Shown here in pieces: positions 5,953-64,000 of a DNA stretch of 64,000 nt (its first letter is position 1; the number at the start of each line of letters is the position of its first letter). Position numbers and translations under genes: made by a program. This stretch comes from Psammoneis japonica. Its lineage: Eukaryota. Where the stretch lies: assembly GCA_008632985.1 (NCBI GenBank), contig QPGO01000034.1, positions 449,311 through 513,310 on the forward strand. Direction: 5' to 3'. The notes beneath the pieces were generated by a model, which did not search any database, had not been told where the DNA came from, and worked only from the letters and a program-made list of their open reading frames with translations.

Positions 5953-8171
5953 CACCCCTGTGGTAGGGGAGAATATGGTGATGTCATGGTTACGTGGCAG
6001 TTTATATCTTATTCATTATATTTTTATATAAATGTCCTCACATTTATTTATGCATTTGTACACAAATGCTAATAGTAGCAGGAAAAATCCTGAACCATAT
6101 TCTCCCCTAAAACTCTAACCACCAAAAACCGAGGGGTCGGAAGCGCACTTTTGGGAGCTCTTTTTCTCCGCACAAAAAACACGCGTTTCGTCGACTCGAC
6201 CATGACGACCTCCCGTTCTTCGTCCCCCACACCACCTGACATATCCCCGCCTGCCATGTCTGATGCGGCAGTCCCTCCTGCAATGGCCGGCACCATCACA
6301 CCCGCTGTCGTTACCCAAACACAGCCGATTTGCCATCCGGAGGATTTGGGGTTCTGTTCGCCAGATCCTGTGCCTGAAACACAAACACAGCGCCGTGATT
6401 GGTCTACTCCTGTCATTGCATCCCCGGAAAAACTGGATTCTCGTTTGCACCGCCGTGTTGTGGAAGGCACTGATGAGCCTTCTCTCAAACGGTCTGGGGT
6501 GCAGCTCCGAAACCAGGTCAAAAAACAAAAGCAACAAACCGACGTCAAGGTTCAGTGGGCGTGGCAGAGGAGCATCTATGACAGGAGGTGTGGTGACAAC
6601 CTTTCTCAGGATGATTGTTCCCAAGCAGAACCTTGTCCATCTGGAGGTGATTGAGACTCACCCAGAGCCCAGCGGAACCAATCGGAGCCAACAACAAGTG
6701 TCAAGATGAACCGCAGCAGCAACATGTGAAGGAGGATGCAGCCAATGGAGTGCGGGCAGAGAAGGTGCCGGCATGCAAAGTGGCAGCATGGCTGTCGACA
6801 AGGCACCAGTTTTGAAGGTCCAACAGTGACAAACACAGTGAGCATTTGCCAAAAGCACGTTGCTGCCTGCCTCCATTTTAGCAACATGCAAAAACAGCAT
6901 GTTGTGCATCACATGCAGAATTCAAACGGCGAGAGTGGCCTCTTATGGAATTGTGCACAATGACCTGGTCCTGGAAAACAGAGCAGTGTCCAAGTCACAT
7001 GCACCATTTGAAACCTTGCCAAGTCGCCTGCAAACAAATGCCAATTCGCTGACCTCTCCAACTTGAAACTAAAAAACTGTGAAAGCATGCCTGCCATCTG
7101 GTTGTTGTCAGGTTTCTAATTTACAGAGAGCTGCGTGCTGTGCCTGCATGTTCTAAAGATTAGACTGCACTCGAGAGCCAACCAAGAGGCGCCACTCATG
7201 TCCATTGATGTGTCGTCCATCAGCAGGCCGTGGTTGCGTGGGTTTCCTGGTCCGCCGTCATCCGTCATCCATTGTGTTCCTTCCAAAGCAAAAACAATGA
7301 CAGTGTCAACAGCAACTGCAGCAGTGAGGGTGGGATTGACAGTGTCGGGCATGCCAGGGGGCCGAAACGCAGGCACGGCGTTGGAATTCGTGATGGCATC
7401 TGTGGGAGGCGGTGGGGCGAGAATGAAAGAAGTGCGAGTTACAAGCATTTCGTTGTGGACGTCATTGGCAAAAGACAATGACAGTGTCAACAGTGCCTGC
7501 GGCAGCAAGGGCAGGAGCAACAGCATCGGGCATGCCAGGGGGCCGAAACGCAGGCACGGCGTTGGAATTCGTGACAGTGTCTGTGGGAGGCGGTGGGGCG
7601 AGAATGAAAGAAGTGTGAGTTGTTGGCATTTCATTGTGGACGTCATTGGCAAAATGCAACAACAGCATCAACAGCACCTGCGGCAGCAAGGGTGGGAGCA
7701 ACAGCATCGGGCATGCCAGGGGGCCGAAACGCAGGTGCGGCGTTGGAATTCGTGACAGCATCTGTGGGAGGCGGTGGAGCGTGCAAACAACAGTGTGAGT
7801 TTGTAGCATCTTATTTTGCACGTGTCACACCCACGAGAACCGGAATGATGACATTGCCTGTTGCATCAGTGTTGTTGGCAACGGCGTCAGTAGGATCGGC
7901 GTCCTGGGAAGGCGATGGGGAAGAACCACGAGGCATCATCATGGTCGAGTCGACGAAACGCGTGTTTTTTGTGCGGAGAAAAAGAGCTCCCGAAAGTGCG
8001 CTTCCGACCCCTCGGTTTTTGGTGGTTAGAGTTTTAGGGGAGCTGTGGAATAGGAATTTTTACTTATTGAATATACACATACGTGTGGATATTAACATTA
8101 AAACTCAACGCACGGCGAAGCCGTGCGCGCACAACCACGCACACACACACAGCTCCCCTACCACAGGGGTG
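5953..8171. mobile_element. Non-autonomous TIR DNA transposon (Mutator/MULE-like by TSD length)
   Basis: Perfect 19-bp TIR CACCCCTGTGGTAGGGGAG (5953-5971 / 8153-8171). Exact 10-bp TSD AGCATAGCTA (5943-5952 / 8172-8181). Inner ~105-bp inverted repeat 6102-6205 / 7939-8042. No transposase seen. Confidence 0.9.
7290..7810. repeat. 181-bp tandem repeat, ~3 copies, inside the TIR element
   Basis: GCATGCCAGGGGGCCGAAACGCAGG recurs at 7349, 7530 and 7711. Confidence 0.9.
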
Positions 8172-43001: not shown

Positions 43002-43305
43002 TGTCGATTGTAGACTTCAGACTGTCGACTCGGCGCATGAAACAGCAGCCGCATGCAGGAATCAGGAATCCAATGCGAAGTCGCACAATGGCGCACGCGT
43101 CGTGTTGTGGGGCGCGCCAGTTGAAAAGTCGGGAGCGATTCCCCACCACACACACCTTGCCAACACCTCTTGCATAAAAACAAATGAACTGCGAGAGCAG
43201 AAAATAAAAAACAAACGAAAAGACAACAGCGACAGTGGCAGAAGTTTCGTGCATTCAACTAACATGCATGGCAGCGGAAACGAGCAAAAGGAGATTATTT
43301 ACAGA

Positions 43306-43388
43306 CGACAGTAGCAGGGTTTGAACCTACGCGGGAGGAGTCCCAATCGATTTCAAGTCGATCGCCTTAACCACTCGGCCATACTGTC
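43306..43388 (-). tRNA. tRNA-Ser(UGA)
   Basis: GACAGTA/TACTGTC acceptor stem, TGGCCGAGTGG A-box, ATCGA-CTTGAAA-TCGAT anticodon arm, long variable arm and GGTTCAAACC B-box. Confidence 0.95.
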
Positions 43389-43404
43389 AAACGTGTATTT
43401 GACA

Positions 43405-44932
43405 AAATTTTTGCTATTTAGACATTTAGTTTACGAGATGCTCAACGCGTTGTTTGTCGCATGCACCGGCACGGGAGGTGCATGTGTCATGGCATGGCGC
43501 TCGCATGGGGGTCTTTTGCCATCTTGCCATGTGGTGAAAGCCACGTAGATTCTACAGAGGCCTCAAGGTGACACAATTAGACTCAAAGCAACCAGGAGAA
43601 TCAAAGGCGACCCCCCTGGAGAGCACTTTTTGAAGGGTGGTCTCAGGTGCTCCAAACCAAATTTTTGCTGTTCAGCCATTTGGTTTGTGAGATGCTCAGC
43701 GCATTGTTTGTCACATGCACCGGCACGGGAGGTGCATGTGTCATGGCATGGCGCTCGCATGGGGGTCTTTTGCCATCTTGCCATGTGGTGAAAGCCACGT
43801 AGATTCTACAGAGGCCTCTCAAGGTGACACAACTGGACTCAAAGCAACCAGGAGAATCAAAGGCGACCCCTCTGGAGAGCACTTTTTGAAGGGTGGTCTC
43901 AGGTGCTCCAAACCAAATTTTTGCTGTTCAGCCATTTGGTTTGTGAGATGCTCAGCACATTGTTTGTCACATGCACCGGCACGGGAGGTGCATGTGTCAT
44001 GGCATGGCGCTTGCATGGGGGTCTTTTGCCATCTTGCCATGTGGTGAAAGCCAAGCAGATTCTACAGAGGCCTCAAGGTGACACAACTGGACTCAAAGCA
44101 ACCAGGAGAATCAAAGGCGACCCCTCTGGAGAGCACTTTTTGAAGGGTGGTCTCAGGCCTCCAAACCAAATTTTTGCTGTTTAGACATTTAGTTTGCGAG
44201 ATGCTCAGCGCGTTGTTTGTCGCATGCACCGGCACGGGAGGTGCATGTGTCATGGCATGGCGCTCGCATGGGGGTCTTTTGCCATCTTGCCATGTGGCAA
44301 AAGCCACGCAGATTCTACAGAGGCCTCAAGGTGACACAGTTGGACTCAAAGCAACCAGGAGAATCAAAGGCGACCCCTCTGGAGAGCACTTTTTGAAGGG
44401 TGGTCTCAGGTGCTCCAAACCAAATTTTTGCTGTTTAGACATTTAGTTCATGAGATGCTCAACGCGTTTTTGTTGCATGCACTGGCACGGGAGGTGCATG
44501 TGTCATGGCATGGCGCTCGCATGGGGGTCTTTTGCCATCTTGCCATGTGGTGAAAGCCAAGCAGATTCTACAGAGGCCTCAAGGTGACACAACTGGACTC
44601 AAAGCAACCAGGAGAATCAAAGGCAACCCCTCTGGAGAGCACTTTTTGAAGGGTGGTCTCAGGTGCTCCAAACCAATTTTTTGCTGTTCATCCATTTGGT
44701 TTGTGAGATGCTCAGTGCATTGTTTGTTGCGTGCACCGGCACGGGAGGTGCGTGTGTCATGGCATGGCGCTCGCATGGGGGTCTTCTTTGCCATCTTGCC
44801 ATGTGGTGAAAGCCACCATGTAGATTCCACAGAGGCCTCAAGGTGACACAATTGGGCTCAAAGCAACCAGGAGAATCAAAGGCGACCCCTCTGGAGAGCA
44901 CTTTTTGAAGGGTGATCTCAGGTGCTCCAAAC
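43405..44932. repeat. ~254-bp tandem satellite, 6 copies
   Basis: GAGATGCTCA recurs at 43435, 43689, 43945, 44198, 44452 and 44705. Confidence 0.95.
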
Positions 44933-46667
44933 CAGATGTGGCCCCCTTTTTCAAAAACTTGGTGGCAGTGGCTTTGAGGAGAGTTGTGGTGCTGCTGTTG
45001 CCCTGGGTGAAAGTGTGAGAAAAACAACTTTTTGTGCACTCCTCTGGTGTGCTCATGTGGCGTGCTCCTCTCATTGCCCCATGCCCGGCACACGCACTTT
45101 TTGCTGCGCTGCTTCTGGCTGGCAGAATGACACCCTCAGCTCTTGTTGCACCTTGGCTGCTTCATCATTCAGGTTGACAGCAGCGCCACTGCTCAACACA
45201 CTGTGCACAAGTCAGAAAGTTAAAAAGCAACCTCCAAGCTCTGAAAATTGTGATCTGGTGCACCCCCCATGTGGCGTGCTCATTGTTTGTGTGTTTTGCA
45301 CCTCTTGTCATGTTTCTGGCAGAGCAACACTTGCTCTGCTCATTTTGCCTTTTCCAACTGCTTTGTCATGAAAGTGTCAGTGCCACCCCTGGTGCAGACT
45401 TCATCCTGGCATTTGATGTCAACCAATCTGCCCCCAGCCTTGATGGCTTTCCAGATTGTGGTCTTGTGCATTTGTGCAATGTGCGCTCACTGTGTTTCTG
45501 GCAGAAATGTCAGCTCTTTTTGCCCTGACTGCTTTGTCATCAAGGTTGACATTGTCTTGGCAAAACAGCTCCTGTTGTTGACCAATCTGCCCCACTGTGC
45601 TCTGCACTGCATGAGCCAGAGAGCTGCGCAATTTTGCACTGACTGTCTCATCATTGCAAAGGAGGTCAACACACGCATCCTTCCAGTGCTCACAAATGCA
45701 ACCTGGTCATGCTTTCATGTGATGTGCTTGTTGTTCGTGCACTTGTTGCTGCTTGTTTTGTTCAAGGCTTGACAGTGCTGACTCTTGTTTCCTTCACTGC
45801 TTCATCACATTGAGGTGTGTGCCACCCCAGCACAGACTTTCCAGCATGTCATCTGCTCAACACTGTGCAAATCAGAGAGTTGAAAAGCAACTTCTGCTTT
45901 TGACATGGCTCAGTCACACAGACACTGAGTGCCATCTTGACAAGCTTTCACCATTGCAGCAGCATGCTTGATGCAAGCATGTGTGCCACAACCCACCTTG
46001 CTTGTCCTGGGCTTGTTGTTGCCACAACTCACTCAGCACATTTTTGCCATTGACAGTTGTCTTGTTGCAGAGCTTCCTCTCTCAAGCGGCTGCTCTTGAG
46101 ATCCTGTGAAATTTGGCACAAAGTCAAACTGCTTGTGCACACACCTGTGATTTCATTGATGTTGGCTCTTTTTGCAGACTGATCAATTCAGAAGTTTGAC
46201 CCAATGCCCCTCAGGTCTGGATCCAGAGGAGATTGGAAAATGAACTTTGGATGTGGCTGGCCAATTTCAGCGGTCATCTGCAGTTGCTTTCACCCACCAG
46301 TCTGCAGAGCTCTGGCAAATGTGGCCAATGTCAGTGGGGGCAAAAGTGGGTGCTTGGCACTCTGACACAGACTTTCTGCTGCAACAGATTTGTGCATCCT
46401 GGGGCAGCCACATTGCCGTCAACATGCTTGCACAATGAGTGCAACGAGCTGGTGCCACATTGACTGTTGCATCAAATGGAGCAGGCGCAGGTTGTCACCT
46501 CCCAGCATGACCAAGACAAAGTTGCCATGATCAACAACTGCTTGAGTTTTGTCAACCTTGGGTGCCAAGATTCAAGTTTGGCTGCCAAGAGCCATGTCAA
46601 TTGCTTCATCTCAGCTTGAGCTGCTCTCTGTCACTTGCCAACTTGCTTTGTCCTGCTGTGTTGCTTN

Positions 46668-47049
<382 letters not shown>

Positions 47050-49323
47050 CACAAATGATCAATGGCAAAAGCTTCAACCCCATCTGGAGTTGGCACATCT
47101 GCTTTGGGCCCAAAACCTCCACACTCTTTTGCCGTGAATTTCAGCCTTCATTTTTGCAATGCAGGCACCAGACAGTGCACTTCTGTCTCAGAGCCAACAG
47201 CCTGTGACGCAGCAACAAGGCTGGGGGGCAAAGTTTCTGGCAGAAATTTTCTGGTCTCAAATGCCAAATGGCAAGCCTCCTGTGTTCCCTCCATCATTCA
47301 CATCACACAGCAGCACACAACCAACTGGCCAGAGCCACCCTTGCACAGCAGCCTGCCTCAAGACCAAAGGTCTTGAGCCAAGTCTCAAGACATCTCTGTC
47401 ACACCAACATCAGCAACAGAATGTCATGAGAGCAAAGTCAACAAGATGACTTGAGTTCAAAAAATGACAACTTCCTTTTTGATTTTTTGGAACAAGACTT
47501 GCTGTGCAGTCATTGGCCTTTTGAGCTGCTTTCATGAAGAGCAGACCAGCGCTGTTTTGTGGGGCAGCAAACACAGCTGCTTTCCAGCAAGTGTTGATGA
47601 AATGTGCTTGGCCAGAGGTTGAGAAATCAAATCAACAAATTTTTTGGTCACCACAAGTGTTGTTGTCATTGTTGTTGTTGTCGTTGTTGTTGTCCTCATC
47701 AGATGACCGGGTCTCCTGCACGCAACTGACTTCCCAGAAAAGACAATGGATCCATTTGCCTCCTTCGCAGTGCACAGACAAGCCATCTGCATTTGGTGCA
47801 CTGATGGAAGCTCACAATGCACAATGTGTTGATGGGCATCAAGGGAGTGTGTCTTGATTGCAGCAATCGCCTTGTGTTCACAATGCACACAATGGCTGTG
47901 CGGTCAACAGCAACGCCAGCCTTCCTGCACTCAATTGGCTCATCAAGCTTGCCCAAAGCAATCTCAAAAGCAGCCAGTGGGTCAGTCTTGTTGTTCACAG
48001 AAAAAGAACAAGGGGCAGCTGATGAAGTGGTTGCCCCGACGGAGCAGCAGCATGGGCAGGGGCATCAACTTGGCATGAGAAATTGTGGGCCCACGCACGT
48101 CTGCAGCAAAACAAGGTGGCGGTGGCCTTCTTGGGAGCAGTGGAGGCATTGGAGGCTGGAGTGCGGGGCAGGTGGGTTCCAGGTTGATGTTGGTGGTGGC
48201 ACAGGATGGAGCTGTTGCTGCAGGGTGCAACTCAGTGACAGGGCGAGTCACATCGCGCACAGCGACAATCTTGGTGGATGGAGCAGAGACAGCTGGGGAT
48301 CAGCTGCAGTCAGCAAATCACCGTCTTGAGCCAATGCCGGGGACAGAGTGGCCTGTGTTGATGACAATTTTGCTTGCCAGAACAGCGCCATCATCAAACG
48401 GGTGCCATTCATGGGGGGGGGCATGCTCACATTTGTTTCATTGTGCTCAAGCTGTGCGTGAGGCAGTTGACATTGGATCTCTGATGGCACACCTCACGCA
48501 GGATTGCTGCACAAGCAGAGTGCATGCCATGCCACGTGCAACATGTTGGTGGATGAAACCAATGAAAGCAGCAACAAGCCATTCAACAATGGAGATGCCA
48601 ATGGCATCGATGAAGCAGAGGTGTCCATGTTCAAAATGCTCACCACCAGTGTCAACAACAATGTGCTGAGGAGTTTTTGTTGTTTCACTCTGTGGCATGG
48701 CCCCTCCTCACACCAAGCAAAAAAGCAAGGCTCATGACCTGAGAGTGATCCACTGTCCATGTGGGAATGACCCTCTCCACTGACACATCATGCTGGCTGC
48801 AGCTTTGCTCACCTGTTGCTGCATGCTTTCCTTGCCTTCTCACAACAATGACCAAGATGTTTGCTGGCTTGTCAGTGGGGAAGCTCATGGCAGTGGTGCA
48901 GATTGTGCCATTTTTGGCATGCACAGTTTGTGATGCAAGAAAAGAATTGTCTTGCTGCTTTGGAGCTTGATTTTCTTGTGCAGATTTGGAGCTGAGTGTG
49001 CATGACACACAGAAATGTGGGGCTGCTGAAAGAACCCTTGCAAACTCTTGACCAAAGTTTCACAGCTGATGACAACAATTCTGCCTCAGTTTCTTGGCCA
49101 CACCTTCTGCGTGTTTCCCACACCAGCTCTGGTGCAGACAATGCCTTTCTCCAATGGTGCAACGACAGCTCTCACTTGCCTGCTCCAACTGCTTCCATCA
49201 CTGACATGCCTTCATTTTGTTGTCACAAGCAATCTCATGCATTTGGAAGTGACTGGCATTGAGCCCTTCTTTTTGTTTGTTTGCTCATCATTCTTCTTGT
49301 TTTTTTCTTCCTCATGTGCAAAG

Positions 49324-49680
49324 TTTCTGCACAAGTTTTGGCACAAATTCTGTGTGCTCTGCAAGTCATTTCAGATGGTTGACTTGCCAAGCTGTTGACT
49401 GCTTTCCATCCACACCTCTCAGGCATCAATGTGTCCCTGTTCTGCCTGTTGTTGTCAATTTCAGTCTCCTGCTTGTGTGGTGAACAATCTTCCATCATTG
49501 CTGCTTTCAGAAGCTTGACTTTTTGAGACCAGCTCAGCATGCATTGGCCTTTCTTTCATGCGCCGACAATTCTGCACAAGTTTTGGTGCATGTGTGGCAT
49601 GTCTTGAAAGTCATTTCAGATGGTCAACTTGCCAAACTGTTGACTGCTCTCTGTCCACACTTCTCAGGTGTCAATGACTC
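49324..49680. repeat. Degenerate ~110-bp direct repeat pair
   Basis: TTCTGCACAAGTTTTGG...AAGTCATTTCAGATGGT..ACTTGCCAA.CTGTTGACTGCT occurs at ~49324 and ~49570. Confidence 0.8.
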
Positions 49681-51329
49681 CCCTTCTGCCAACCACCAGT
49701 TTGAGCTCTCTGCCTCATCTGGCAAAAAAAAATGGTGCTGTGACTCCATTGCCAGCAAGGCTGGTGCTGGCTGACCCACACTCCCAGCACATTGGAGCAA
49801 TGTGGCAGATGCTAGAATGGATGCCTCATGTGGCAAACAGTCCTCCATCATTGCTGCTGCCAGAAGTGTGAACTTGAGCTGGCCTGGCATGTGTTGGTGT
49901 GGCCAGTTTGTGCCCTGCTCTTTCTCACATCAAAACATTTCCAGACTGTCTGTCTCACCTTTGCAGCCAGATCCAATTTCAAAAAAAGAGCCTGACCACA
50001 GCATCAAGCACTTTGACTTTGATGCTGTCTTATTTTGCTGGTCCTGTTTTTGCTGCTGCCAGCAGTTTCTGGTGGGCACCACAGACTTGTGGCACAAATC
50101 TCAGCCAATTGTCAACATGCTCCAGCCCCGGGTGATGCACAAAACAACACTCCCTTTTGACATGATTTGCATGTGCTTTGCATGTTGAGGCTGTTTTCTG
50201 GAATTGATGCTTGTGCATTCTGGCTTTCATGCTTGACAAGAGTGTGAATGTTTGAACAATTTTTTTCATCAGTGTTCAAGTCTTTGTTGGATGTGCAAAA
50301 TTCATCTGTGGAAACAATGCTGGCTGTGCATCAGCAGTCATGTTGCAGAAAGTTTGTGTGAGCAGACCAATGCTGCAAAATGCATGCATTTTGTGTCAAC
50401 CTCCAAACAGCAATGGTGTGTGAATCTTCAAAAATTTTGGCAAAAATCATCCGTTGTGTTTTACAACCTGCTTGTCACAATGAAGAAACATTGACCGCAC
50501 AAAAGCAATGACATTGCAACGCTGGCACAAGTCTTGTCAGTGTTGCAAAACATTGAAATTTTTGCACAAATCCATGCTTTTGGTGATGAAATCTTGTTTG
50601 CAAGTCAGAGACCACAAAAAAAATGTGCAAATGTTGTTTTTTGCACACTTTGGTTCTTTTCATGCGTGTGGCTGGAACACGTCTGTCACATGTCCCTGCT
50701 TTTGATGTGCTGGGGTGTGGGTCAGCTTGCTCTCTTGCTGGAGTTGAAGGGTGGAAGCACAGCAATGCTTTGAACACAGATTTTGGGTTTTGTTGCAAGC
50801 ACAAAACATGGCAAGGAGATCAAGCCATCAGCTGCCAAAGCAGCCACCTGACAAGGAAGCAGCTCTTTAGCCATGGCCCAGGAGACACAAGGTGCAGATG
50901 TGTGCAGAACAAAGTGGGAGTGCTGTGTGTTGTCTTTTTGGGGCTGCCAAATGTTGGAGCATCTGGATGAGCAGGAAATGTGAGAGACCTGGAAGCACAT
51001 CTGTTGAAAAGAAGATGCTTTGGATCTTGATGTGATGGATTGGATGACACTTTGGAAACAAATGTGCACTCATCACCAATCTCACCAACCTTCTTTTTGC
51101 TGCATTTTGTGGTGTCAGTGGGTGCCCTTTGTGTCACAAGAAAAAAGTTGTTGAGAGCATCCAGGCAAACCACAGCCATCATGGCAACCAGGACAAGTGC
51201 AACAAGCAGCACAAGAAACCTCAGAGGACCCCCATTGGCAGTGACATTGACTTGTTGGTTCAACATTCACTCCAAAGAGTCTGGAGCACTGTGTTCAGTG
51301 CATGCAGTGCTGACCTCCCCATTTGATTG

Positions 51330-54300
51330 TCATCTGTGAGTCAAGAAACCTTCATCATGAGTGGCAGAGGAGGAGGAGGAATGAGCACCAAAGGCCAATG
51401 TCATCACCAAGGCAGAGGTGACAGAGGCCCAAAGTCTTGTCTGAAAACAAGAAAAGAAACCCCAAGAACAAGAGAGCAGTGATGATGCTGCAAGCATTGA
51501 GTGACACCCACAGGTCAAGTCAAGCTGCAAGCTCTGGCAGAAGAAAGGTTCATGGCATGGGCTCCAATTGGATGAACAGGCCAAACAAGGGCCAGAAATG
51601 AGTTTGAGCCAAGCCAATGCCAGCATCAAGTCAGATGAGACAATCCTTGACAATGGCTCCACCCCCAGCATGGCAGCAAGCTGGGGTCCAGTGCACAATG
51701 TGCAACTGGCAAGAATCAAGATTGATCTTTCCACAAGAACACAGGAGTGGACACTTGTTTGAGTGAGGACTGCACTGTTTCAGGACAGGGTGATGTGAAG
51801 CTTGGATTGCAAAATGCAACAGCCAACATCCTGAGTCTGAAAAATGTGAAGAGCAAGCACTGCATTGTGCACAACAACTGAGTGGCAAATGAGTTCTGCC
51901 CATTGGACAAGAAGACTGGCAAACAGGTCACAGTGTTCAAAGTCAATGACATTGGACTGCATGCCTTTGCCCCAAGCCAGCAGTTCTGTGACCATGCAAA
52001 TGAACTCCAAGAAGATGAGTGGCACATGAGCATGCCATTGAAGGGCAAGAAAGAGGTCACAAAAAGACCAACAAGAAGCACAGGAGTGCATCAGGAACTG
52101 TTGTCCCAGCTGCAAAACAAAATGTGAAAGGCTGCTCTAAACAAGAGGTGGCAAATGCCAAGGAAGTGCAAAGGCTGTGCTGTGAAGCTGGAGTGCCCAG
52201 TGTGAGAGACTTCAAGCCACTCCTGTGATCCAACCAGGTGAAGAACCCATCCATCCCACCCAAAAATGTGGACAGAATGGTGGCCACATGGGGTCCACCA
52301 ATGGGTGCACTGAAAGACAAGACCAAGCATGATTGCCGCTCCTGTCAGAGGAACAAGGTCATCATTGTTCCACCTGAGATCTGTGACAAGCAGAGAGAAG
52401 GCATGACCCTCTGCATTGATGCCATGGAAGCATGTGGTGTTGAGATGATGCGCGCGATTGACAAGATGTTCAAGTGCTGATTGAGTGTAAAGCTGAAGTC
52501 CAAGAAGCATGAAGACATGCACAAAGCCTTGGATGTGATTCTCCAAAGCTGTCAAAGCAATGGTCACACAACAAGACATCAAGGAATTCAAGTTTGCAGA
52601 GGCAAATTCAGAGACAATCTGTGCACTGTTGGCTGGACTGCAGGAGTGGACAATGATGAAAACAACAGCAACAGCAACAACAAAGACAAAATCACAGAAA
52701 GCAAAATGACACAAACCGCACAACCAGCACCCAAGCCAGAAGACAAAGACCATGAAGATGAGCCTGACTCAGATGACAAGTGTGAAAAAGCAAATGAGAT
52801 GCTGGCTGCCAAAAGGTCTCTGGTCCTGGCCAACAGCATGAAGCTCAAGAAGGGCACAAGGTTGAAGAAGACTCAGAAGACAGTGATCATGACCACAAGA
52901 GTGAAGAACCCAAACAAGACAAAGAACCCCAGGAAGGCTGAAGATGGGGAGGCAAATGAATGGAGGAAGATGCAGATGCCGTGCCAGGGAGCAGAGTCAC
53001 ATGAAGTGGAGCATTCTTCAGCATGACATCACAAAGACATGGAGAAAACAAAGTTTGTTTCACAGGAGTGGAAGACACCAGAAAGACAGCAAAGAAGCAA
53101 TGCAAGCTCAAGTGCTGCCATCATTTGCATGCTGACGTGAGTCCTGGCCCAAAGGATGACATCAAACATGAGTCAGAGACAGCAATGGCACTCACACACT
53201 TCATGTGTGAGATTGACAACTGACTCTGAAGTGGAGAGGGTGCAAGTTTTGCCCAACAATGTTTGCTCCATGAAGGCCTCAAAGCATTTGGCCAGAGAAG
53301 GGGCATGATGCCTTGCAGAAAGAAATCAAACAGCTGCACAGCTGAGTGTGCTTTGCAACAACATCAGTCAAGGATGCAACTCCAACTGAAAGGACCAAGG
53401 CCATGGCAGCCTTGATGTTCCTTGCACCAAGAAATGAGATGGTTGCACAACAGGGTGAATGCAATGGCAAACTGACCTGAGAGTGGCCAGACAAGGACAA
53501 GTCAGCCAGCTCTGCTGCATCTCCAGAGGGGACATTGATGAAGGCAACTGTTGACACCCATGAAAGACACAACAAAGTGAGCACCAATGTTCCAAATGCA
53601 TTTCTGCAGACCATGACACTGGAGCCTGGAGAAGGCAAAGACTGGATTGTGACACAAAGATTGCAGGAGTGCCAGTGGACATGCCAGCGAGCATTGATCC
53701 CAACCTGTGCAGACCTTGCATGGTCCCAGAGAAAGGCAAGAGAGTCCTTTGCATCCAACAAGTCATCAGAGCCACATTCATGGTGTGCCAATCATGGCTC
53801 TGTTGTGGCACAACAAAGTCCAATGAGTTCAGCCCACATGGTCCATGCATTGCCAATTGTGCAGTCAATGGCAAGCAGCGCACAATTCAATTTCATGTGG
53901 ATGACTTGTTGTCAAGCCACAAGAACCCAAAAACCCAAAAGCAGACAACAACTTCCTGAGCTGGCCAAACAAAAGAAGTCTGGCAGCCATGGTGAGGTTG
54001 TTGCCATGCAAGAGAAGAGACATTGCCATCTTGGCATGACCCTGGACTTCAGCCAGAAAGGGAAAGTGAAAGTTGACATGGCAGGCTGTGTTTGCAAGAC
54101 AATTGATCAGTTTCTAGAAAAGACAAAGAGCATGGATTCTGCATTGACACCAGCCAGAGAAAAGACATTTGACACCAGTGGAACAAGATGATCAGATGAG
54201 AAGGCTCAGACCTTCCATGTGTGGATGGCCAAGGGACCACTCCTGTCCAAGAGAGGCCAAATGGACACACACCTTGCTGTCACCATGTCATGCATGCAAG

Positions 54301-54562
54301 TGAGAGCTCCCACCAACAAGGGTTGGGAAAGCCAGTCCATTGTCTCAAGCATCCAAGCCAGACAAAAAATGAAGCCACTGCATCAAGCATGAAGGGCCTC
54401 TGAGTTGTCAAGTGGAGGGTGGATGCATCATTTGAAGCACACCCCAATTTCAACAGCCACACCAAAGGAGCAGTCAGAGCAGTGCAGGCTCATCTCAAAG
54501 TGCCTGAATCTCACTGCCTGAAGCAGCACAGAAGCTGAGCTTGTTGGAGTTGATGATGCCAT
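51330..54562 (+). mobile_element. Heavily decayed Ty1/copia retrotransposon (pol remnant)
   Basis: Protease ILDNGST; RT motifs VPNAFLQT, PCIAN..VNGKQ.TI.FHVDDL.SSH and HLGMTLDFS..GKVKVDM; RNase H KW.VDASF..HP and TEAELVGVDDAM. Many stops and frameshifts; left boundary approximate. Confidence 0.85.
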
Positions 54563-57500
54563 GTGTTTCTCTTTGACAACAAATGTGTTGGGGGCAAACA
54601 ACATTGCATTGTCAAACGTGCGACAACCTGCCATGTTGGCTTGGGCATTGTTTTCTTTGCCTTGCTCCAACAGCCAGCCCACATCCAATGACAAACCCTG
54701 GAATGCTTTTGTGCATGCTGCAGTGCTGTCTTTTGTTTTGACCAAGTGCCAATCTGCATGACTGCAAAATGTGAAAAAAACCAAATTCCCAGAGATCTTC
54801 TGATGGCTTTGCTGCAATTTGTGCTGTGTTTTTTGTTTCCTGCTGGCAACAAGGCCACTTCAAAGATGCCTCCCTGCTCAACAACTGTGCTCTTGCCCCA
54901 ACTCTGCACCAGTGTGTGCAGCACTGGTTCAAACAGAAATGCTTTGTTAAATTTCTCTGCAACCTTGGCACAAAAGAGCATTGTTTCATGCAGCTGCAGG
55001 TCAGCACCGCTGTCTTGTTGAGTCAGAGCCTCTGGAGGTGTGTTGTGAACAGTTGACTCATTGTTGTTTGTTGTCAAGGCAAGCACGCATTTGCCCCGAA
55101 GACTCAACATTTAGCTGGCACACAAAGTGACAACAAACCATGCATCAACTCATTGTTGCCTTGACTGCTTTCTTGCTTGCCAGAGCGCTGCTTCTTCCTC
55201 ATGATGTCTGCTCTTGGTTTTTCCAAGAAGATTGCAGCACCCTTCATCAACAAGCAACATCTGCTGCAGCAGCTCTCAAACATGGCATGAAACTGTTGCT
55301 GCTCCCTTGACTTCTCTTTTGTGGAAATGGCTGTGCCACATCTGCACAACTTTGCACTGCCCTTGAAGCCATCAGTGTTAGCATGCCCCAAAGCCTGCCA
55401 TGATGCCAGCTCCATGTCTGACACCCAGCCTCTTTGCAAGTCTGCCAAACTTGCCAAACTCACAAAACCTGCCACCAAACACACCAAACTTGCCAAACAA
55501 ACCAAACTTGCCAAACTTGCCAAACCCACCAAAAACTTGCCAAACTCAACAAACTTGTCAAATTTGCCAAACTCACCAAACCCACCAAACTCGCCAAACT
55601 TGCCAAACCCACCAAACTTGCCACACTTGCCAAACTCGCCAAACCCACCAAACTTGCCAAACTTGCCAAGCCAGCCAAACTTGTTAAAATTGCCAAACTC
55701 ACCAAACTTGTCAAACTCGCCAAACTCACCAAACCCGCCAAACTTGCCAAACCCACGAAACTTGCCCAACTTGCCAAACTCACCAAACCCACCAAAACTG
55801 CCAAACACACCAAACTTGCCAAACTTGCCAAGCCAGCCAAACTCGTTAAACTTGCCAAACTTGCCAAACTCACCAAACTTGCCAAACCTGCCAAACCTGC
55901 CAAACTCACTGAACTTGCCAAACTTGAAAAACTTGCCAAACTTGCCAAACTCGCCAAACTCACCAAACCCGCCAAACTCACCAAACTTGCCACACTTGCC
56001 AAACTCGCCAAACTTGCCAAACCCCCCAAACTTGCCAAACTTGCCAAATGCACCAAACTTGCCAAACCTGCCAAATTTGCCAAACTTGGCAAACTCGCAA
56101 AACTTGCCAAACTTGCCAAACCCGCCAAACTTGCCAAACTCAGCAAACTTGCCAAACTCACCAAGCTTGCCACACCCACCAAACTTGCCAAACTTGGCAA
56201 ATGTGCCAAACTTGCCAACCCCACTAAACTTGCCAAACATGCCAAACTCGTTAAACTTGCCAAACTCAACAAATTTGCCAAACTCAACAAACTTGACAAA
56301 CCTGCCAAACTCACCAAGCTTGCCAAACTCACCAAACTTGCCAAAGCCGCAAAATGTGCTAAACTTGCCAAACTTGCCAAACTTGTCAAACTTGCCAAAC
56401 TCGCCACACTCACCAAACTTGTCAAACTTGTCAAACACACCAAACTTGCCAAACCAGCCAAACCAACCAAACCAACCAAACTTGCCAAGCTTGCCAAGCT
56501 CACCAAACTTGCTGAACTTGCCAAACTCACCAAACTTGCCAAACTCACCAAACTTGTCAAACTTGTCAAACTTGCCAAACTCACCAAACCCGCCAAACTT
56601 GCCAAACTTGCCACACTTGCCAAACTCGCCAAACCCGCCAAAACTGCCAAACACACCAAACTTGCCAAACTTGCCAAGCCAGCCAAACTTGTTAAACTTG
56701 CCAAACTTGCCAAACTCGCCAAACTTGCCAAACCTGCCAAACTCACTAAACTTGCCAAACTTGCCAAACTTGAAAAACTTGCCAAACTTGCCAAACTCAC
56801 CAAACCCGCCAAACTTGCCACACTTGCCAAACTTGCCAAACCCACCAAAACTGCCAAACTTGCCAAGCCAGCCAAACTCGTTAAACTTGCCAAACTCACC
56901 AAACTTGCCAAACCCCCCAAACTTGCCAAACTTGCCAAACTCACCAAACTTGCCAAACCCGCCAAACTTGCCAAACTTGTCAAACTTGCCAAACTTGTCA
57001 AACTTGCCAAACTCCCCAAAACTTGCCACACCCGCCAAACTTGGCAAATGTGCCAAACTTGCCAACCCCACTAAACTTGCCAAACTTGTTAAACTTGCCA
57101 AACTCAACAAATTGACAAACTCGACAAACTCTCGAAACTCAACAAATTTGACAAACCCGCCAAACTTGCCAAACTCACCAAACTTGCCAAACCCGCCAAA
57201 CTGGCCAAAGCCACAAAATGTGCTAAACTTGCCAAGCTTGCCAAACTTGTCAAACTTGCCAAACTCGCCAAACCCACCAAACTTGGCAAACTTGCCAAAC
57301 TTGCCAAACTGGCCAAACTTGCCAAACCCACCAAACTTGCCAAACTCAGCAAACTTGCCAAACTTGCCAAGTGTGCCAAACTTGCCAAACTCGCCAAACC
57401 CACCAAACTTGTCAAACTTGCCAAACACACCAAATTTGCCAAACTCGACAAACTTGCCAAACTCAACAAACTTGACAAACCTGCCAAACTTGCCAAACCC

Positions 57501-59450
57501 ACCAAACTTGTCAAACTCACCAAACTTGCCAAAGCCGCAAAATGTGCTGAACTTGCCAAGCTTGCCAAACTTGTCAAACTTGCGAAACTTGCCAAACCCA
57601 CCAAACTTGGCAAACTTGCCAAACTCACCAAACTTGCCAAACCCACCAAACTTGCCAAACTCAGCAAACTTGCCAAACTTGCCAAGTGCGCCAAACTTGC
57701 CAAACTCGCCAAACCCACCAAACTTGTCAAACTTGCCAAACACACCAAATTTGCCAAACCTGCAATGCCAGCACAGCCAAAGGAACAAAGTGCAACACAC
57801 AAGACAGCGCCTCTTTTTGGAGTGGGTGACCACTCTTTTTTTGAAGATCTGACTGATCCTGCCACATGCTGATGTTTTCTGCGTGGATTTCTTGCACTTG
57901 CAGGAATCACCAAAAACCAAAAAAAGCCCAAAAAAGTGTTTTCACATGGGGGGCATTGCTGTCTCATTCACAATTCATGCCAAACTTTGCACATTGCTGA
58001 AAAAGCTCATTGTTGCACATGACATGAACACATGTGCAACATGAAGATTTGACTGTGTGTTGCCCCAAATGCAACTCAATGTTTTGCATGTGGCCCCAAA
58101 CAAAATTCAATGCTTTGCTGTCATGTGCTTTTGTGGCAGAAAAGGCAACACACAAACTGTCTGTGCTGTGTGCTGTTTGTGCACACCTTCTTGACAACAT
58201 CCCATTCCTCCATTGGCCATTGTTCCCATGTTGCTGCAGTTTCTCTGTGCACAAGTTTGTGCTCTGCAAAACTCCCTCATGTGTTTTCTCTTTGACAACA
58301 AATGTGTTGGGGGCAAACAACATTGCGTTGTCAAACGTGTGACAACCTGCCATGTTGGCTTGGGCATTGTTTTTTCTTTGCCTTGCTCTGCCAGCCAGCC
58401 CACATCCAATGACAAACCCTGGGTTTCTTCTGTGTGCACTGCAGTGCTGTCTTTTATTTTGACCAAGTGCCAGTCTGCATGACTGAAAATGTGCCCAGTG
58501 CCTCTTGCAACAACTTGCTTGCCACAGCATCCATTTGTGCAGACCAAATTCCCAGAGATCTTCTGCTGGCTTTGCTGCAAATTGTGCCATGTTTTTTGCT
58601 TCCTGCTGGCAACAAGGCCACTTCAAAGATGCCTCCCTGCTCAACAACTGTGTTCTCACCCCAGCTCTGCACCAGCATGTGCAGCACTGGTTCAAACAGA
58701 AATGCCTTGTTAAATTTCTCTGCAACCTTGGCACAAATGAGCATTGCTTCATGCAGCTGCAGGTCAGCACCGCTGTCTTGTTGAGTGAGAGCCTCTGGAG
58801 GTGTGTTGAAAACAGTCGACTCCCTGTTGTTTTTTGTTGAGGCAAGCATGCAATTGCCCCAAAGACTTGACAATCAGCTGGCACACAAAGTGGCAACAAA
58901 CCACGCATCAACTCATTGTTGCCTTGACTGCTTTCTTGCTTGCCAGAGTGCTGCTTTTTCCTCAGGATGTCTGCTCTTGGTTTTTCCAAGAAGATTGCAG
59001 TGCCCTTCATCAACAAGCAACATCTGCTGCAGCAGCTCTCAAGCATGCCATGAAGCTCTTGCTGCTCCCTTGACTTCTCTTTTGTGGAAATGGCTGCACC
59101 ACATTGCGCAACTTTGTGCTCCCCTTGAAGCTGTCAGTGTGAGCGTGCCCCAAAGCCTGCCATGATGCCTGCTCCATGTCTGATGCCTGGCCTCTTTGCA
59201 AGTCTGCCAAACTTGCCAAACTCACAAAACCTGCCAAACTTGCCAAACTCAGCACATTCGCCAAACTTGCCAAACACATCAAACTCGCCAAACTTGCCAA
59301 ACCCACCAAAAACTTGCCAAACTCAACAAACTTGTCAAACTTGTCAAACTCGCCAAACTCGCCAAACTTGCCAAACTCAACAAACCTGCCAGACTTGCCA
59401 AACCCACCAAATTGGTCTTGCCAAACTTGCCAAACTCAACAAACTTGCCA
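54562..59450. repeat. ~1-kb block present twice (54562-~55620 and 58281-~59450), each copy running into the 9-bp minisatellite
   Basis: Alignable by eye from TCTCTTTGACAACAAATGTGTTGGGGGCAAACAACATTGC through TCTGCCAAACTTGCCAAACTCACAAAACCTGCC. Confidence 0.9.
55440..57765. repeat. 9-bp minisatellite, consensus CCAAACTTG, ~2.3 kb; shorter array at 59203-59450
   Basis: Continuous CCAAACTTG/CCAAACTCA/CCAAACCCA variants, which produce the (LPN)n and (GKF)n pseudo-ORFs. Confidence 0.95.
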
Positions 59451-62400
59451 AGTGTTCTTCAACATTGACAGTGCTGTTGACGTCATCCAAGCTCATGCTG
59501 CGCAGACTTGCGGCAACTCCCTCACCAGGGAACAATGGTGTTGCATTCTGCCAGACCATCAGCGCATTTGGGACACCTTGCCTCAGTCCACCAAGGCCAT
59601 CATTCTTGGCCTGGGCACCTCCCACACTAGCAACTGCCATGACTTGATGGCAGTCAACCTGCACGACCTCCGTCTTGGCAGTGACGGTGATGTCAACTTG
59701 TCCACCAATGCCCATGATGTTGCGTCAACCCTCACACCATCTGACACTGCAGATGACACGGCCAATGCGGCCAACCCCATCCTGGCCCATCTCACATGGT
59801 GCAAGCCTTTGCCACCCGGCGACTTGCAATGTCTCCTGGCACTTGAACGGCACCCTTCTGCCCGCTCTGACAAGAAACCCCCCGGATCTACACCTTCCAT
59901 CCACTCCAACAAGAAATCCAATGGATCTGTGTCCTTCCATGCCGCCGACACTGACACTGAGCTCAACGGTCATAAATGCTGTTGTGTCAACAACCACAAT
60001 GTCATCTGCTCTGCCTCAACTCACAAATCAGTTTACAAAGGCGCTCCAGTGGATCGCGGTGCATGCGGTGGTGTTGCCGGTGATGATGGCAATGTCATTG
60101 CCCGCACTGGTTGCCAGGTTGATGTCCAAGGTGTCGATGATCACCAACTGGTTGGCATTCCCATTGTCACTGCTGGTGGTGTCATCCACACGCAACGCAG
60201 CCCTGTCATTGCCATCCTTCACCAGTGCACCTGCACTGGAAAGGGGAAGACCATGCACTCTTGCAGCCAGCTTGAGTGGCACAAACACAACATCAATGAT
60301 TGGTCCATCAAGGTTCCCAATGGTCTGCAGTGCATCACCACCATTGACGGATGCATCATTCCCATCAACATCAAGGCCGGCCTTCCGTGCATCACCACAT
60401 GCCCGCACACCGATGCCGAATGGGACACCCTGCTGCATGTTGTTCTCACTGGCAACAACACCTGGGATCCATCTGTCCTTGACCACCAGTTCATTGACGA
60501 TGAAAAGTGGTGTGATGCCATGTCTGACCTCCAAGACGACCCGACTGCCAACCTCTTTGACAAGTTTGGCAACTGTTGCCACCGCCATGTTGTCAACAAT
60601 GCCATGCTTGCAGACTCCATCCTTGATGACCACCTGCGCACAATGTTTGATTTCTTCTGTGAATGCCATGAGCGCAAGATCAATCCAAAGGATCCCAACT
60701 TTGAGTCTCTGCACTCTCATTTTGGCTTTCTCCTGAAGGACACTGTTTGCCGCACTTTTGATTGCACGATGCAATGCACCCGCATGCCAGCCAGCACACA
60801 CTTGAAAAAGGTGTGCAAGTCGGCCAGTCTGGCTCTAAATGTTCGCCGATGCAACGAACCTGTTGCCACTGACACGGTGCACTCTGACACCCCAGCCATT
60901 GACTCCAGCTGCACCAGCGCCCAGCTCTTTGTTGGCACCGAATCCCTTGTCACCGGCGTGCATGGAACCAAGACCAACAAGGAATTTGTCAACATGCTTG
61001 AGGACAGCATTTGTCATCGTGGTGCCCCGTCCAAGCTCATCAGCAACCGTGCTCAAGTTGAGATCAGCAACAAGGTTCTTGGCATCCTCCGTGCCCTCTT
61101 CATCTCTGGTTGGCAAAGCGAGCCTCATCAACAGCATCAGAATTTTGCTGAACATTGCTGCCAAACTGTGAAGACCATGGCCAACACCATCATGGATTGC
61201 TTTGGGTCTCTGGCTTGCACCTGGCTGCTCGCCCTGATGTGTGTGTGCTTCATGCTCAACCACACGGCATGTGCCAAGCTCCACCGGCACACCCCCACTG
61301 AAGTGCTGTCGGGCTCCACTCCTGACATCAGCCCACTCCTCCATTTTCAATGGTGGGAACCAGTGCACTGTCACCTGGATGATTCCAACACCACCTGAAT
61401 CCCGTGAATTATGTTGCGGTTGCTTTGTTGGCATTGCTGAACACGTGGGCCACCAAATGATGTTCAAGATTCTTTCTGACGACACTCAGAAGATTCTCTG
61501 CCATTCCAATGTGCATTCCGCCCATGATCCATCTGCTCCAAACCTGCGTCTTGATCCTCCTGATGAGAAACATGCTGACCCGTCATTAAATCCTGCCACG
61601 ACTCTGAGGATTTGCCAGATTCACCAGATGGGGAGGCAATCAGGATGCCCAAAATGCTGGTCTTTGACCCCGAGGACATCATTGGATGCACCTTCCTCAT
61701 GAAGCCACAAGAGGATGGACAACGCCACAGAGCCCGCATTGTCAAAGCCGTTGAGGACCATGACTGGAAAATCAGAGACAATCCTGAACTGGTCAAGTTC
61801 ATTTGCTCAATGGCGCAGGAATGGTGACCACTGCAAATGCATGGCAGTGCATGTGGGTGACCCAGCCTTCACCATGAAGGACCCCCAGGCTTTTGCAGAC
61901 ACCCTCATGGAGAAACACAAGTTCAAGCTCAAGGGCACTGGACCACTGGAGTTCCATCTTGGTTGTGATTTCACCCATGATCCAGATGGCACCCTGTGCC
62001 TTGCTCCCCGCAAATGCATTGAGCGCATGGTTGACAACTGCACGTGGCTCTTTGGGGAGAAGCCCTGCACTGATGTGCTTTCACCCCTTGACAAGGGAGA
62101 CCACCCTGAGCTTGACACTTCCTAATTACTCAAACTGGATGGCATCCACCCACTCCAATCCTTGATTGGTTCCCTGCAATGGGCCGCATCCCTTGGTCAC
62201 ATTGACATCACTGCAGCTGTCATGTCTCTGTCTAGCTTGCATGCAGTGCCCCGCCAGGGCCGCCCAGACCGTGCCAAACGTGTCTGCAGATTCCTCTCCA
62301 AGATGTGTCATGGTGCCCTTTGATTGCTCACCAAGGAGCCCAAATGTTCAGACCTTCCCAAGCCCGTGTGTGACTGGGCCCAGTCTGTGCATGGGGAGGT

Positions 62401-63311
62401 AGAAGAGCTGCTCCCGCAAGATGCACCTGAGCCACTTGGCAAGTTCGTCACCACAACACACTGCGTCAATGCAAACTTGTTCCATTGCATGCTCACTGGA
62501 TGCTCTGTCACCGGCATCCTCCATTTCCTCAACAAGTTTCTGGCTGATTGGTTCTCTAAGAAACAAGCAACAGTCAAGACTGCCATGTGTGGATCCGACA
62601 AGTTTGTTGCCGCAAGGACGTGCATTGAGCAGATCATTGACCTGCGCATCACTTTACGTTGCCTTGGCATCCCCATTTGCAAAACATGTTGCATGTTTGG
62701 GGACAACAAGTTGGTTGTGGACAGTGCTGCCATCCTGCACTCCAAGCCACACAAGCAACACACTGCCCTCTCATTCCATCATGTGTGTGAGGCAACTGCC
62801 TCCAGTTTCCTTGAGTTTCATTTCATCAAAAGTTCCCACAACCCAGCTGACATCCTCAGCAAGCATTGGGGTCACTCCCAAGTCTGGAGCCTCCATCCTC
62901 TAATGTTTTGGAACTTCGATCCCAAGGCTTTCAACCAATCTGACCTCAAATCTGTTGCTGTTGACCCCTCAAGCAAACTGGGGAGTGTCAGGATTTGAAC
63001 AAGATTTCAGTTCATCACACACAATTACATGCATGCTCTTAGTTCCGCGCGGGTCACGTGATGCAGTTTGCTTTCAAGCCACTCAGCTCACAAGAACAAT
63101 GACAGCAGTGCCGACATCACAACACCAGTCTTTTGGCTCCTGCAACAGTCTCTGCATGGAGACTCATCTGCCATTTGGACAGCAGCAAGGAGTTGTTGTT
63201 TTCTTCCACCCAGTCATCTTCAATTTCTGTCACATGACAGTCGTGAGACCTGTTTGTTCTTTGTGATGTCAGAAAAGAGCTCTGATGCATGTTGCTGAAA
63301 GATCCCTGACA
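59450..63311 (+). mobile_element. Ty1/copia LTR retrotransposon (diatom CoDi-like), 5'-truncated, internally deleted and mutated
   Basis: Gag end IWDTL..KAIILG; protease VDRGA.GGVAG; integrase NEPVATDT, RGAPSKLIS and SEPHQQHQN; RT tail; RNase H SKKQATV, MFGDN and NPADILSKHW. Domain order PR-IN-RT-RH; PPT GGGGAG at 62980-62985. Confidence 0.92.
62986..63311 (+). repeat. 3' LTR of the copia element
   Basis: Starts TGTCAGG directly after the PPT and ends CCTGACA (inverted termini TG...CA); 326 bp. Confidence 0.75.
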
Positions 63312-64000
63312 ACTCAACATTCAGCACAAACATGAAGTGAGAGAGCCTCAAGACCCACACACATCAATTGTGCTGAAAGAACAACAAATTTGGAAGAGCA
63401 TGTTGTCAATGCAACCCATCCCAGTGCTGCATGGCTTGAGCCCATCAAAAACAGAAGTTGCTGAATGATTGCTGGCTGTGTTTCCTTGAGTTAAAGGCCT
63501 GGTGCAATTGCCAATGACCAAGACACCAAGCAAAATGAGCCTGCACCCAGTGCATCTCCAAGCAGCAGTGCAAAGTTTTGCATTTAGGACAGACAAACTC
63601 ATGTGGTGGTTGGCAAGCAACAAGACATCACTGTGCGTTGACCCACACTTGAGATGGGATGCTGCTGATTTGCATCAATTGATGGTGTCAACATGGACAA
63701 AAGACACAATGTGGTTGGAGACATGCTGTGTGTGGAGATTGAGAAACTTCAGCCAGTGTGGGTGGGATTGTGGAAGCAAAGACACTGCACCACCATGAAA
63801 AAGTTTTGTGACAAGAAAGAATTTTGTGACAAGACAGCAAGGCACTGGACATGCAGTTGGTGCCAAGGTGTGTGTCCACTGCCACACCAATGTTCCCCAC
63901 ACACATGATGACAAGAGTGTCATGGACAAAGCTGAGCTGTGCAGAATGAATGTGCACAAGACCAGCAAGTGCTGGCGTGTTTTTGGTTTGTGAATGCCAA

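Follow-up and report, generated by a model that had tools for sequence, protein, structure and literature searches.

Which DNA does a regional mutation process strike, and where does it stop? The question is raised by a tandem array of six repeat units beside a tRNA-Ser(UGA) gene in the diatom Psammoneis japonica, within a stretch of 64,000 nucleotides (assembly GCA_008632985.1, contig QPGO01000034.1, positions 449,311 to 513,310 of the forward strand) that we call the window and number from its first letter. Tandem Repeats Finder delimits the array at 43405-44934, with a period of 253, 6.0 copies and 94% matches, and cutting at the repeated AAATTTTTGCT gives the units, which we number 1 to 6 from the tRNA gene outwards. 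The 5′ end of the tRNA gene points towards the array, whose first copy starts 15 bp upstream. At the array the dinucleotide regime of the window switches sharply, the array itself forming the left edge of a TpA- and CpG-poor domain of at least 20.6 kb. Copy 1 retains 17 of the 19 TA and CG steps that serve as targets in the unit, and copies 2 to 6 retain 9, 5, 13, 8 and 8, respectively. We consider it probable that two mutation processes, both working in place and both aimed by position, have eroded an array lying across the edge of this domain, with copy 1 spared.

The change of regime is seen in both dinucleotides. The gene-rich left part (1-43303) holds 1667 TA steps against 2953 expected (rho, the ratio of observed to expected counts, 0.564) and 2466 CG steps against 2470.4 (rho 0.998), with a rho(TG+CA) of 1.14. 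To the right of the array (44935-64000) there are 42 TA where 1246.9 are expected (rho 0.034) and 214 CG where 1111.1 are expected (rho 0.193), rho(TG+CA) reaches 1.88, and the interval 45222-49812 is entirely free of TA. Values for the array are TA 17 against 90.7 (rho 0.187), CG 43 against 99.6 (rho 0.432) and rho(TG+CA) 1.61; we propose that it is less eroded than the remaining domain because it entered the domain later. The tRNA gene is intact and keeps four TA and seven CG by dinucleotide count, and the rho(TA) of copy 1, 0.45, compares with 0.56 in the gene-rich part.

Differences among the copies are concentrated in the same kind of step. The six-copy alignment contains 42 variable columns, 32 of them substitutions and 10 indel columns. 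Classes were assigned by us from the variable-column table, giving 21 transitions in pyrimidine-purine steps (TA or CG versus TG or CA), seven other transitions and four transversions. Such steps cover 124 of the 254 majority-consensus positions (48.8%), and they hold 21 of the 28 transitions (binomial p=0.0044) and 21 of the 32 substitution columns (p=0.042). The initial annotation of this locus had named a lack of enrichment at TA and CG among variable sites as evidence against its reading; enrichment is what the alignment contains. Both positions vary in four steps (28/29, 42/43, 54/55 and 133/134), for which random placement of 28 columns gives P(at least 4)=0.0033. All seven TA steps of the unit alternate with TG or CA exclusively, and 10 of the 12 CG steps vary among copies by CG>TG/CA. 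The strings first quoted for the locus (25-mers of copies 1-5, and ATTCCACAG in copy 6) are all exact, and the stepwise reading of one site through TTTACG, TTTGCG, TTTGTG and TTCATG is consistent with the alignment and with the polarity and event counts given below.

That polarity, with TA and CG as the older states, was sought both outside and inside the array. An outgroup copy of the unit was searched for in other DNA windows, in metagenome contigs by two exact-pattern scans, and in the rest of the window by blastn. No look-alike was found in the other DNA windows examined and no further copy in this one, in which blastn matched the units elsewhere over only 13-32 nt (E>=0.15). One scan of the metagenome contigs returned no match and the other two, and both were rejected as chance resemblances with only 20-25 nt in common.

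A neighbour supplies the direction. The domain contains a copia-type retrotransposon relic, identified by homology search, with PF07727, the copia-type reverse-transcriptase family, on one of its 56 homologues; Pfam itself finds nothing in the open reading frame (ORF) of the relic. We aligned the relic with 16 of the 56 homologues, hand-picked among the better-scoring matches. Its tyrosine content is 0.13%, against 3.0-3.9% in these 16 homologues, and its cysteine content 6.1%, against 0.5-1.9%. There are 16 columns in which at least 60% of the homologues have tyrosine, and at these the relic has cysteine at eight, histidine at four, another residue at four and tyrosine at none. TAY codons have thus become TGY and CAY, which makes TA the older state. 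Steps with three states among the array copies agree: TA or CG links the other two states in three of three, and TG or CA in none, yet TG and CA steps are about four times commoner in the consensus than TA and CG steps (49 versus 13). The polarity assumed at the outset is therefore borne out, by cysteine or histidine at 12 of the 16 columns and by the three-state steps, and on the same two grounds we rejected the reverse, in which copy 1 would have gained TA. Combining the TA and CG states over all copies gives 7 TA (rho 0.45) and 12 CG (rho 0.75), near the window background, so the unit was ordinary, unmutated DNA when amplification began.

The copy next to the tRNA gene had been called the least mutated on a single compared segment, and the same holds over the whole unit. 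Pooling the other copies, which keep 43 of their 95 targets, gives Fisher p=3.4e-4 against copy 1, a value that is optimistic since the cells share ancestry. Taken singly, copy 2 differs from copy 1 at p=0.013, and copy 6, at the other edge of the array, at p=0.005. The edge of the mutated zone is bracketed by the last target kept in copy 1, a CG at 43608, and the first target lost in copy 2, now TG at 43669-43670 (Table 1). Retention does not fall off with distance from the tRNA gene: the Spearman rho is -0.52 (p=0.29) for all six copies and, when copy 1 is left out, -0.15 (p=0.80). The idea that mutation weakens at the domain edge accordingly stands as a step between copies 1 and 2, and not as a gradient running out from the tRNA gene.

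Table 1. Features of the window discussed in the text (targets are the 7 TA and 12 CG steps of the unit)
Feature	Position	Strand	Details
Control island	6102..8042		in the gene-rich part; 126-nt inverted repeats (93% complementary) at its ends
tRNA-Ser(UGA), anticodon tga	43304..43389	-	ARAGORN; Rfam RF00005, 61.3 bits, E 2.7e-11
Copy 1	43405..43658	+	254 bp; TA 7/7, CG 10/12 retained; rho(TA) 0.45
TAAATA	43415..43420	-	about -32 to -27 from the tRNA 5′ end; minus-strand reading
Interval containing the edge of the mutated zone	43609..43669		220-280 bp from the tRNA 5′ end
Copy 2	43659..43914	+	256 bp; TA 2/7, CG 7/12 retained
Copy 3	43915..44167	+	253 bp; TA 1/7, CG 4/12 retained; 2 private CG losses
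Copy 4	44168..44421	+	254 bp; TA 3/7, CG 10/12 retained
Copy 5	44422..44674	+	253 bp; TA 3/7, CG 5/12 retained; 3 private losses
Copy 6, distal edge copy	44675..44934	+	260 bp, 3 insertions; TA 1/7, CG 7/12 retained
Rest of the TpA- and CpG-poor domain	44935..64000		continues past the window end
Copia-type retrotransposon relic	59143..61398	+	homology search: 56 homologues, one with PF07727

Mutation continued after amplification, as had been proposed from the first inspection. At least seven TA or CG losses are private, each confined to a single copy (copy 3 has two, copy 5 three and copy 6 two), step 133/134 reads CA in copy 4 and TG in all five others, and the best of the 945 rooted trees requires at least 31 events on 17 steps under a forward-only model. 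This excess of events points to parallel hits together with some exchange between copies. The losses in copies 2-6 are partly private and partly in shared patterns. Some differences are common to groups of copies (1, 4, 5 versus 2, 3, 6; 3, 4, 5 versus 1, 2, 6); these were inherited through duplication or exchange, and so not all of the differences are independent.

TA loss and CpG loss can be told apart at a second island, at 6102-8042, which has 19 TA against 104 expected and 100 CpG against 138 expected. A 181-bp tandem repeat lies inside it at 7288-7781, and in this tandem part one TA is seen where 21.5 are expected. The first two 181-bp copies differ at 26 columns, of which 18 are pyrimidine-purine-step transitions, and at seven steps one copy has TG and the other CA, the outcome expected where both copies lost the same TA independently. 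Since the island lost TA yet kept CpG, erasure of TA does not need CpG decay, and the CG to TG component included in the initial annotation is best treated as a second, separate process. The island may be a small terminal-inverted-repeat element hit by the TA process alone. Within the domain, the region around the copia relic (59500-62500) has 12-17 CpG per 500 bp against mostly 0-8 elsewhere, with TA equally rare, so that the ratio of TA loss to CpG loss varies among loci.

These observations can be ordered into a history. Unmutated DNA directly upstream of the tRNA-Ser gene would have been tandemly duplicated to six copies, and the resulting array would now straddle the left edge of a silenced, repeat-derived domain in the diatom chromosome. 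Within that domain one process would convert TpA to TpG or CpA in place, that is A:T to G:C at TpA only, most likely by adenine deamination through a DNA-directed deaminase, with the signature of the hypermutable regions of the chlorarachniophyte Bigelowiella natans. In a second process, most likely deamination of 5-methylcytosine, CpG would become TpG or CpA. Chromosomal position, and not sequence, would direct both. Copy 1 would have been spared because it lies no more than about 220-280 bp from the tRNA gene, while copies 2-6, alike in sequence but deeper in the domain, lost 6-14 of their 19 targets each. We infer the two enzymes, the targeting through chromatin, and a protected zone set by TFIIIC and TFIIIB occupancy of the RNA polymerase III (Pol III) gene; a role of the tRNA gene as a barrier is suggested by its position.

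The closest precedent is the work of Mettrop et al. on B. natans (bioRxiv 10.64898/2026.01.13.699255). Of the 231 mutations that two viral inserts gathered in mutation-accumulation lines, 230 were A>G or T>C, each of them at TpA; new mutations arose at about 1000-fold the normal rate, and an ADAT2-like deaminase is proposed. For the insert of a nucleocytoplasmic large DNA virus (NCLDV), the same text gives one change other than A:T>G:C in 211, with G:C>A:T almost absent. The mutated DNA there is integrated giant-virus and virophage sequence. The likeness to our locus lies in TpA to TpG/CpA changes confined to discrete regions beside normal DNA, in long-term TpA depletion with an excess of CpA and TpG, and in the enrichment of transposable element-type domains in TpA-poor sequence. 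The differences are as clear. Our organism is a diatom and belongs to a different supergroup, the erosion is far more complete (rho(TA) 0.034 versus 0.45 in the B. natans NCLDV region), and the targets include a tandem array of no recognisable viral or transposable origin in a domain that holds a copia relic. Here, too, the edge can be placed next to a tRNA gene with a resolution of about 60 bp. De novo mutations were counted in B. natans, whereas at our locus we read a footprint. CpG loss in the domain is read as a second, superimposed process because of the TA loss without CpG loss at 6102-8042. A term search of the preprint text returned no mention of diatoms, boundaries, heterochromatin or CpG, and a full-text literature search, covering sources other than subscription journals, found no report of the TpA hypermutation signature in a diatom.

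Three further systems share single features with the locus. Repeat-induced point mutation (RIP) changes C to T mainly at CpA, creates TpA, and is aimed by sequence duplication. It resembles what we describe in that repeated or mobile DNA is filled with transitions in one dinucleotide context, coding capacity is destroyed and copies diverge after duplication. Here, however, TpA is destroyed by A:T to G:C change and not made, and targeting by homology is contradicted by copy 1, which keeps 17 of its 19 targets while its five homologous neighbours keep 5-13. RIP is a known process of Neurospora and other ascomycetes (PMC7882544). Decay of 5-methylated CpG would account for the conversion of CG to TG and CA on both strands, as in the rho(CG) and rho(TG+CA) of the domain, but leaves the TA loss unexplained, and the two are separable at the control island. 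Finally, tRNA genes and TFIIIC sites act as chromatin boundary elements in yeasts and animals (PMC12409998, PMC3395662). At our locus an intact tRNA gene sits exactly where the mutated, silent-looking domain meets gene-rich DNA; what marks the junction is a mutation footprint, and the protected zone extends about 220-280 bp past the gene.

Other histories could place one spared copy beside a tRNA gene. Genealogy in place of position would have copy 1 branch earliest and copies 2-6 descend from an already mutated unit and then be homogenised, with mutation rates equal throughout. Edge copies of tandem arrays often escape homogenisation, and all four reversal-like states, in which a single copy has TA or CG, sit in the two edge copies (p=0.012). 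A tree with copy 1 as sister to all others is one of the two best rooted trees, and the absence of private hits in copy 1 is compatible with chance. The lineages would nevertheless be equally old from the root, yet copy 1 lost at most two of 19 targets and the others 6-14, and the probability of two or fewer losses runs from 0.034 to 0.0002 at loss rates from 6/19 to 10/19. Copy 6 is an edge copy as well, lies inside the domain and kept just 8 of its 19 targets, significantly fewer than copy 1, and beyond the array the spacer, the tRNA gene and the left flank are unmutated too and continue the spared zone. We regard this history as unlikely, with the proviso that a position effect and genealogy are not fully separable from one array. 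Selection offers a different reason for the sparing of copy 1. The TAAATA in its head includes two of its seven TA steps, two more lie at -38 to -44, and we take this motif to be a candidate TFIIIB/TBP-type upstream element. In some eukaryotes Pol III transcribes tRNA genes with the help of upstream TATA-like elements, and the TA steps could have been kept as part of such a promoter. The TA at 43546, 43553 and 43578 and ten CG steps, 45-220 bp upstream, are all retained too, far beyond any known Pol III upstream element, so that promoter selection is a very unlikely cause.

The edge might also mark no barrier at all, if mobile elements insert beside Pol III genes and the domain reaches just as far as the inserted DNA. 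Retroelements are known to target tRNA genes in yeast and Dictyostelium, and the copia relic lies inside the domain. The edge, however, falls between copies 1 and 2, which are identical by descent, and not at a junction of inserted and native DNA. Pfam detects no transposon domain in the 82 ORFs of 44.9-64 kb, and none near the array. Insertion could explain where the repeats lie and not why copy 1 was spared, and we think it improbable as the explanation of the edge. For the array we also rejected ADAR-type editing of an RNA that was then reverse-transcribed, as neighbouring tandem copies without retroelement features differ in place.

Several points weigh against position-aimed mutation as we have set it out. 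The evidence comes from one array and one edge, in which copy 4 (13/19) is not significantly different from copy 1 (p=0.23), and the 0 of 8 private hits in copy 1 could arise by chance (p=0.23), copy 2 likewise having none. With no outgroup copy of the unit, polarity within the array is drawn from the neighbouring copia relic and the three-state steps. Copy 6 has, besides its two private losses, two CG steps found in no other copy, so either these were lost in copy 1 too or CG can arise. No single tree accommodates the 10 non-target columns, which need 13 events; the copies have therefore exchanged sequence, and this blurs the event counts. The CpG loss lies outside the B. natans precedent, in which the hypermutable regions had almost no G:C>A:T. 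The remaining points concern the assembly itself, which we checked against contigs assembled separately from the public run of a single sample, possibly also the source of the assembly. One such contig, at a depth of 128.5, contradicts a variant of copy 3 at 44158, where it differs by C>T and an extra G. Contig depths of 28.6, 152 and 171.8 for sequences with 1, 1 and 4 occurrences in the window, against about 62 in the flanks, do not fit one identical array on both haplotypes, and suggest that the two haplotypes differ in this array.

The last two points also lend something to an artefact, in which the differences among copies, or the whole TA-free domain, would be errors of base calling or assembly, caused by modified bases for example, or a mixture of haplotypes. 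It is further in favour of an artefact that all three runs found derive from one sample, which may be that of the assembly. Both ends of the array are nevertheless matched without a single difference by separately built contigs. One of 25,318 nt covers 42500-43475 (976 bases) and takes in the four TA steps with which copy 1 opens; another of 1946 nt corresponds to 44885-46500 (1616 bases), a nearly TA-free flank of 1.6 kb with one TA, at 45221; array-internal pieces of 104 and 63 nt also show no differences. In the copia relic, moreover, the change is visible in the protein when it is compared with 16 homologues of other origin. An artefact is in our judgement highly improbable, and erosion aimed by position across the array remains the reading that we prefer.

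The same contigs bear on the extent of the repeat family. The name satellite, used initially, claims too much for this repeat: its depths of 128-197 compare with about 62 for single-copy sequence, so the unit is not a high-copy or genome-wide family, and we describe it as a local array. About 70 nt of a 116-nt contig resemble the unit (against 43542-43611; six differences, two gaps), with CA in place of the TA of copy 1 at 43578, whereas its ends are unrelated; the contig may come from a stray fragment of the unit at another place in the genome. A diverged second tRNA-Ser-like copy also exists elsewhere in the genome, among contigs of the same sample (80 nt with nine differences, against 43303-43382). 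Pfam, Rfam and DNA comparison match the array to no known element. Rfam at E<=0.1 over 42000-64000 detects the tRNA gene and three sub-threshold microRNA-model matches within a 9-bp satellite, and nothing else; with no Rfam match at the unit, it is not a known RNA gene.

On either side of the array the window differs in gene content. The left part is gene-dense, with ORFs for Mtr4, MIF4G/MA3, Gpi1, an AAA ATPase and a cation-efflux protein. The Mtr4 ORF is 63-78% identical to its best 120 relatives, and every match named with an organism is a diatom: Nitzschia inconspicua (72-73%), Phaeodactylum (69%), and also Cylindrotheca, Pseudo-nitzschia, Thalassiosira and Skeletonema. In the domain, 82 stop-to-stop ORFs (16 plus 66) with a length of 90 aa or more at 44.9-64 kb were compared with Pfam, and none matched a family significantly; ORFs contained entirely in the (AC)n and 9-bp arrays were excluded from this set. 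With TA nearly absent, 44885-64000 lacks TAA and TAG stops, and all six frames on both strands are filled with stop-to-stop ORFs of 90-750 aa, so that a long ORF there does not indicate a gene. The 9-bp satellite (TGCCAAACT, about 257 copies, 73% matches) and a shorter second array occupy 55443-57763 and 59205-59451 in the TA-poor domain, where the satellite skews GC and AT strongly and gives both strands very long ORFs. An (AC)n tract of 192.5 units at 46667-47053 directly follows the sole N of the window (46667), which may mark an assembly join at the microsatellite.

In the literature searched, regional TpA to TpG/CpA hypermutation has so far been described in one 2026 preprint on a chlorarachniophyte, and a far more complete footprint in a diatom would add a second major eukaryotic lineage. 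The array informs how the process is aimed, a point not taken up in the preprint: with one spared and five eroded copies side by side, targeting would follow chromosomal place, to about 60 bp, and not sequence, repeat status or an RNA intermediate. The locus also shows TA loss and CpG loss as separate processes. At 1.5 kb, with unique flanks, it is compact and amplifiable and suits direct measurement of the mutation rate, of methylation, of chromatin and of the role of the tRNA gene. A wider reading is possible, though we lean against it at present: a chromatin-aimed mutator of diatoms would erase TpA from silenced domains, an active Pol III gene would set a fixed protected zone of 220-280 bp (about one to two nucleosomes), and duplication would have pushed protected DNA across its limit, the whole forming a mirror image of RIP that is shared by, or convergent in, stramenopiles and rhizarians. 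If that reading is true, the array would be a dated ruler for the rate and the edge of a genome-defence system.

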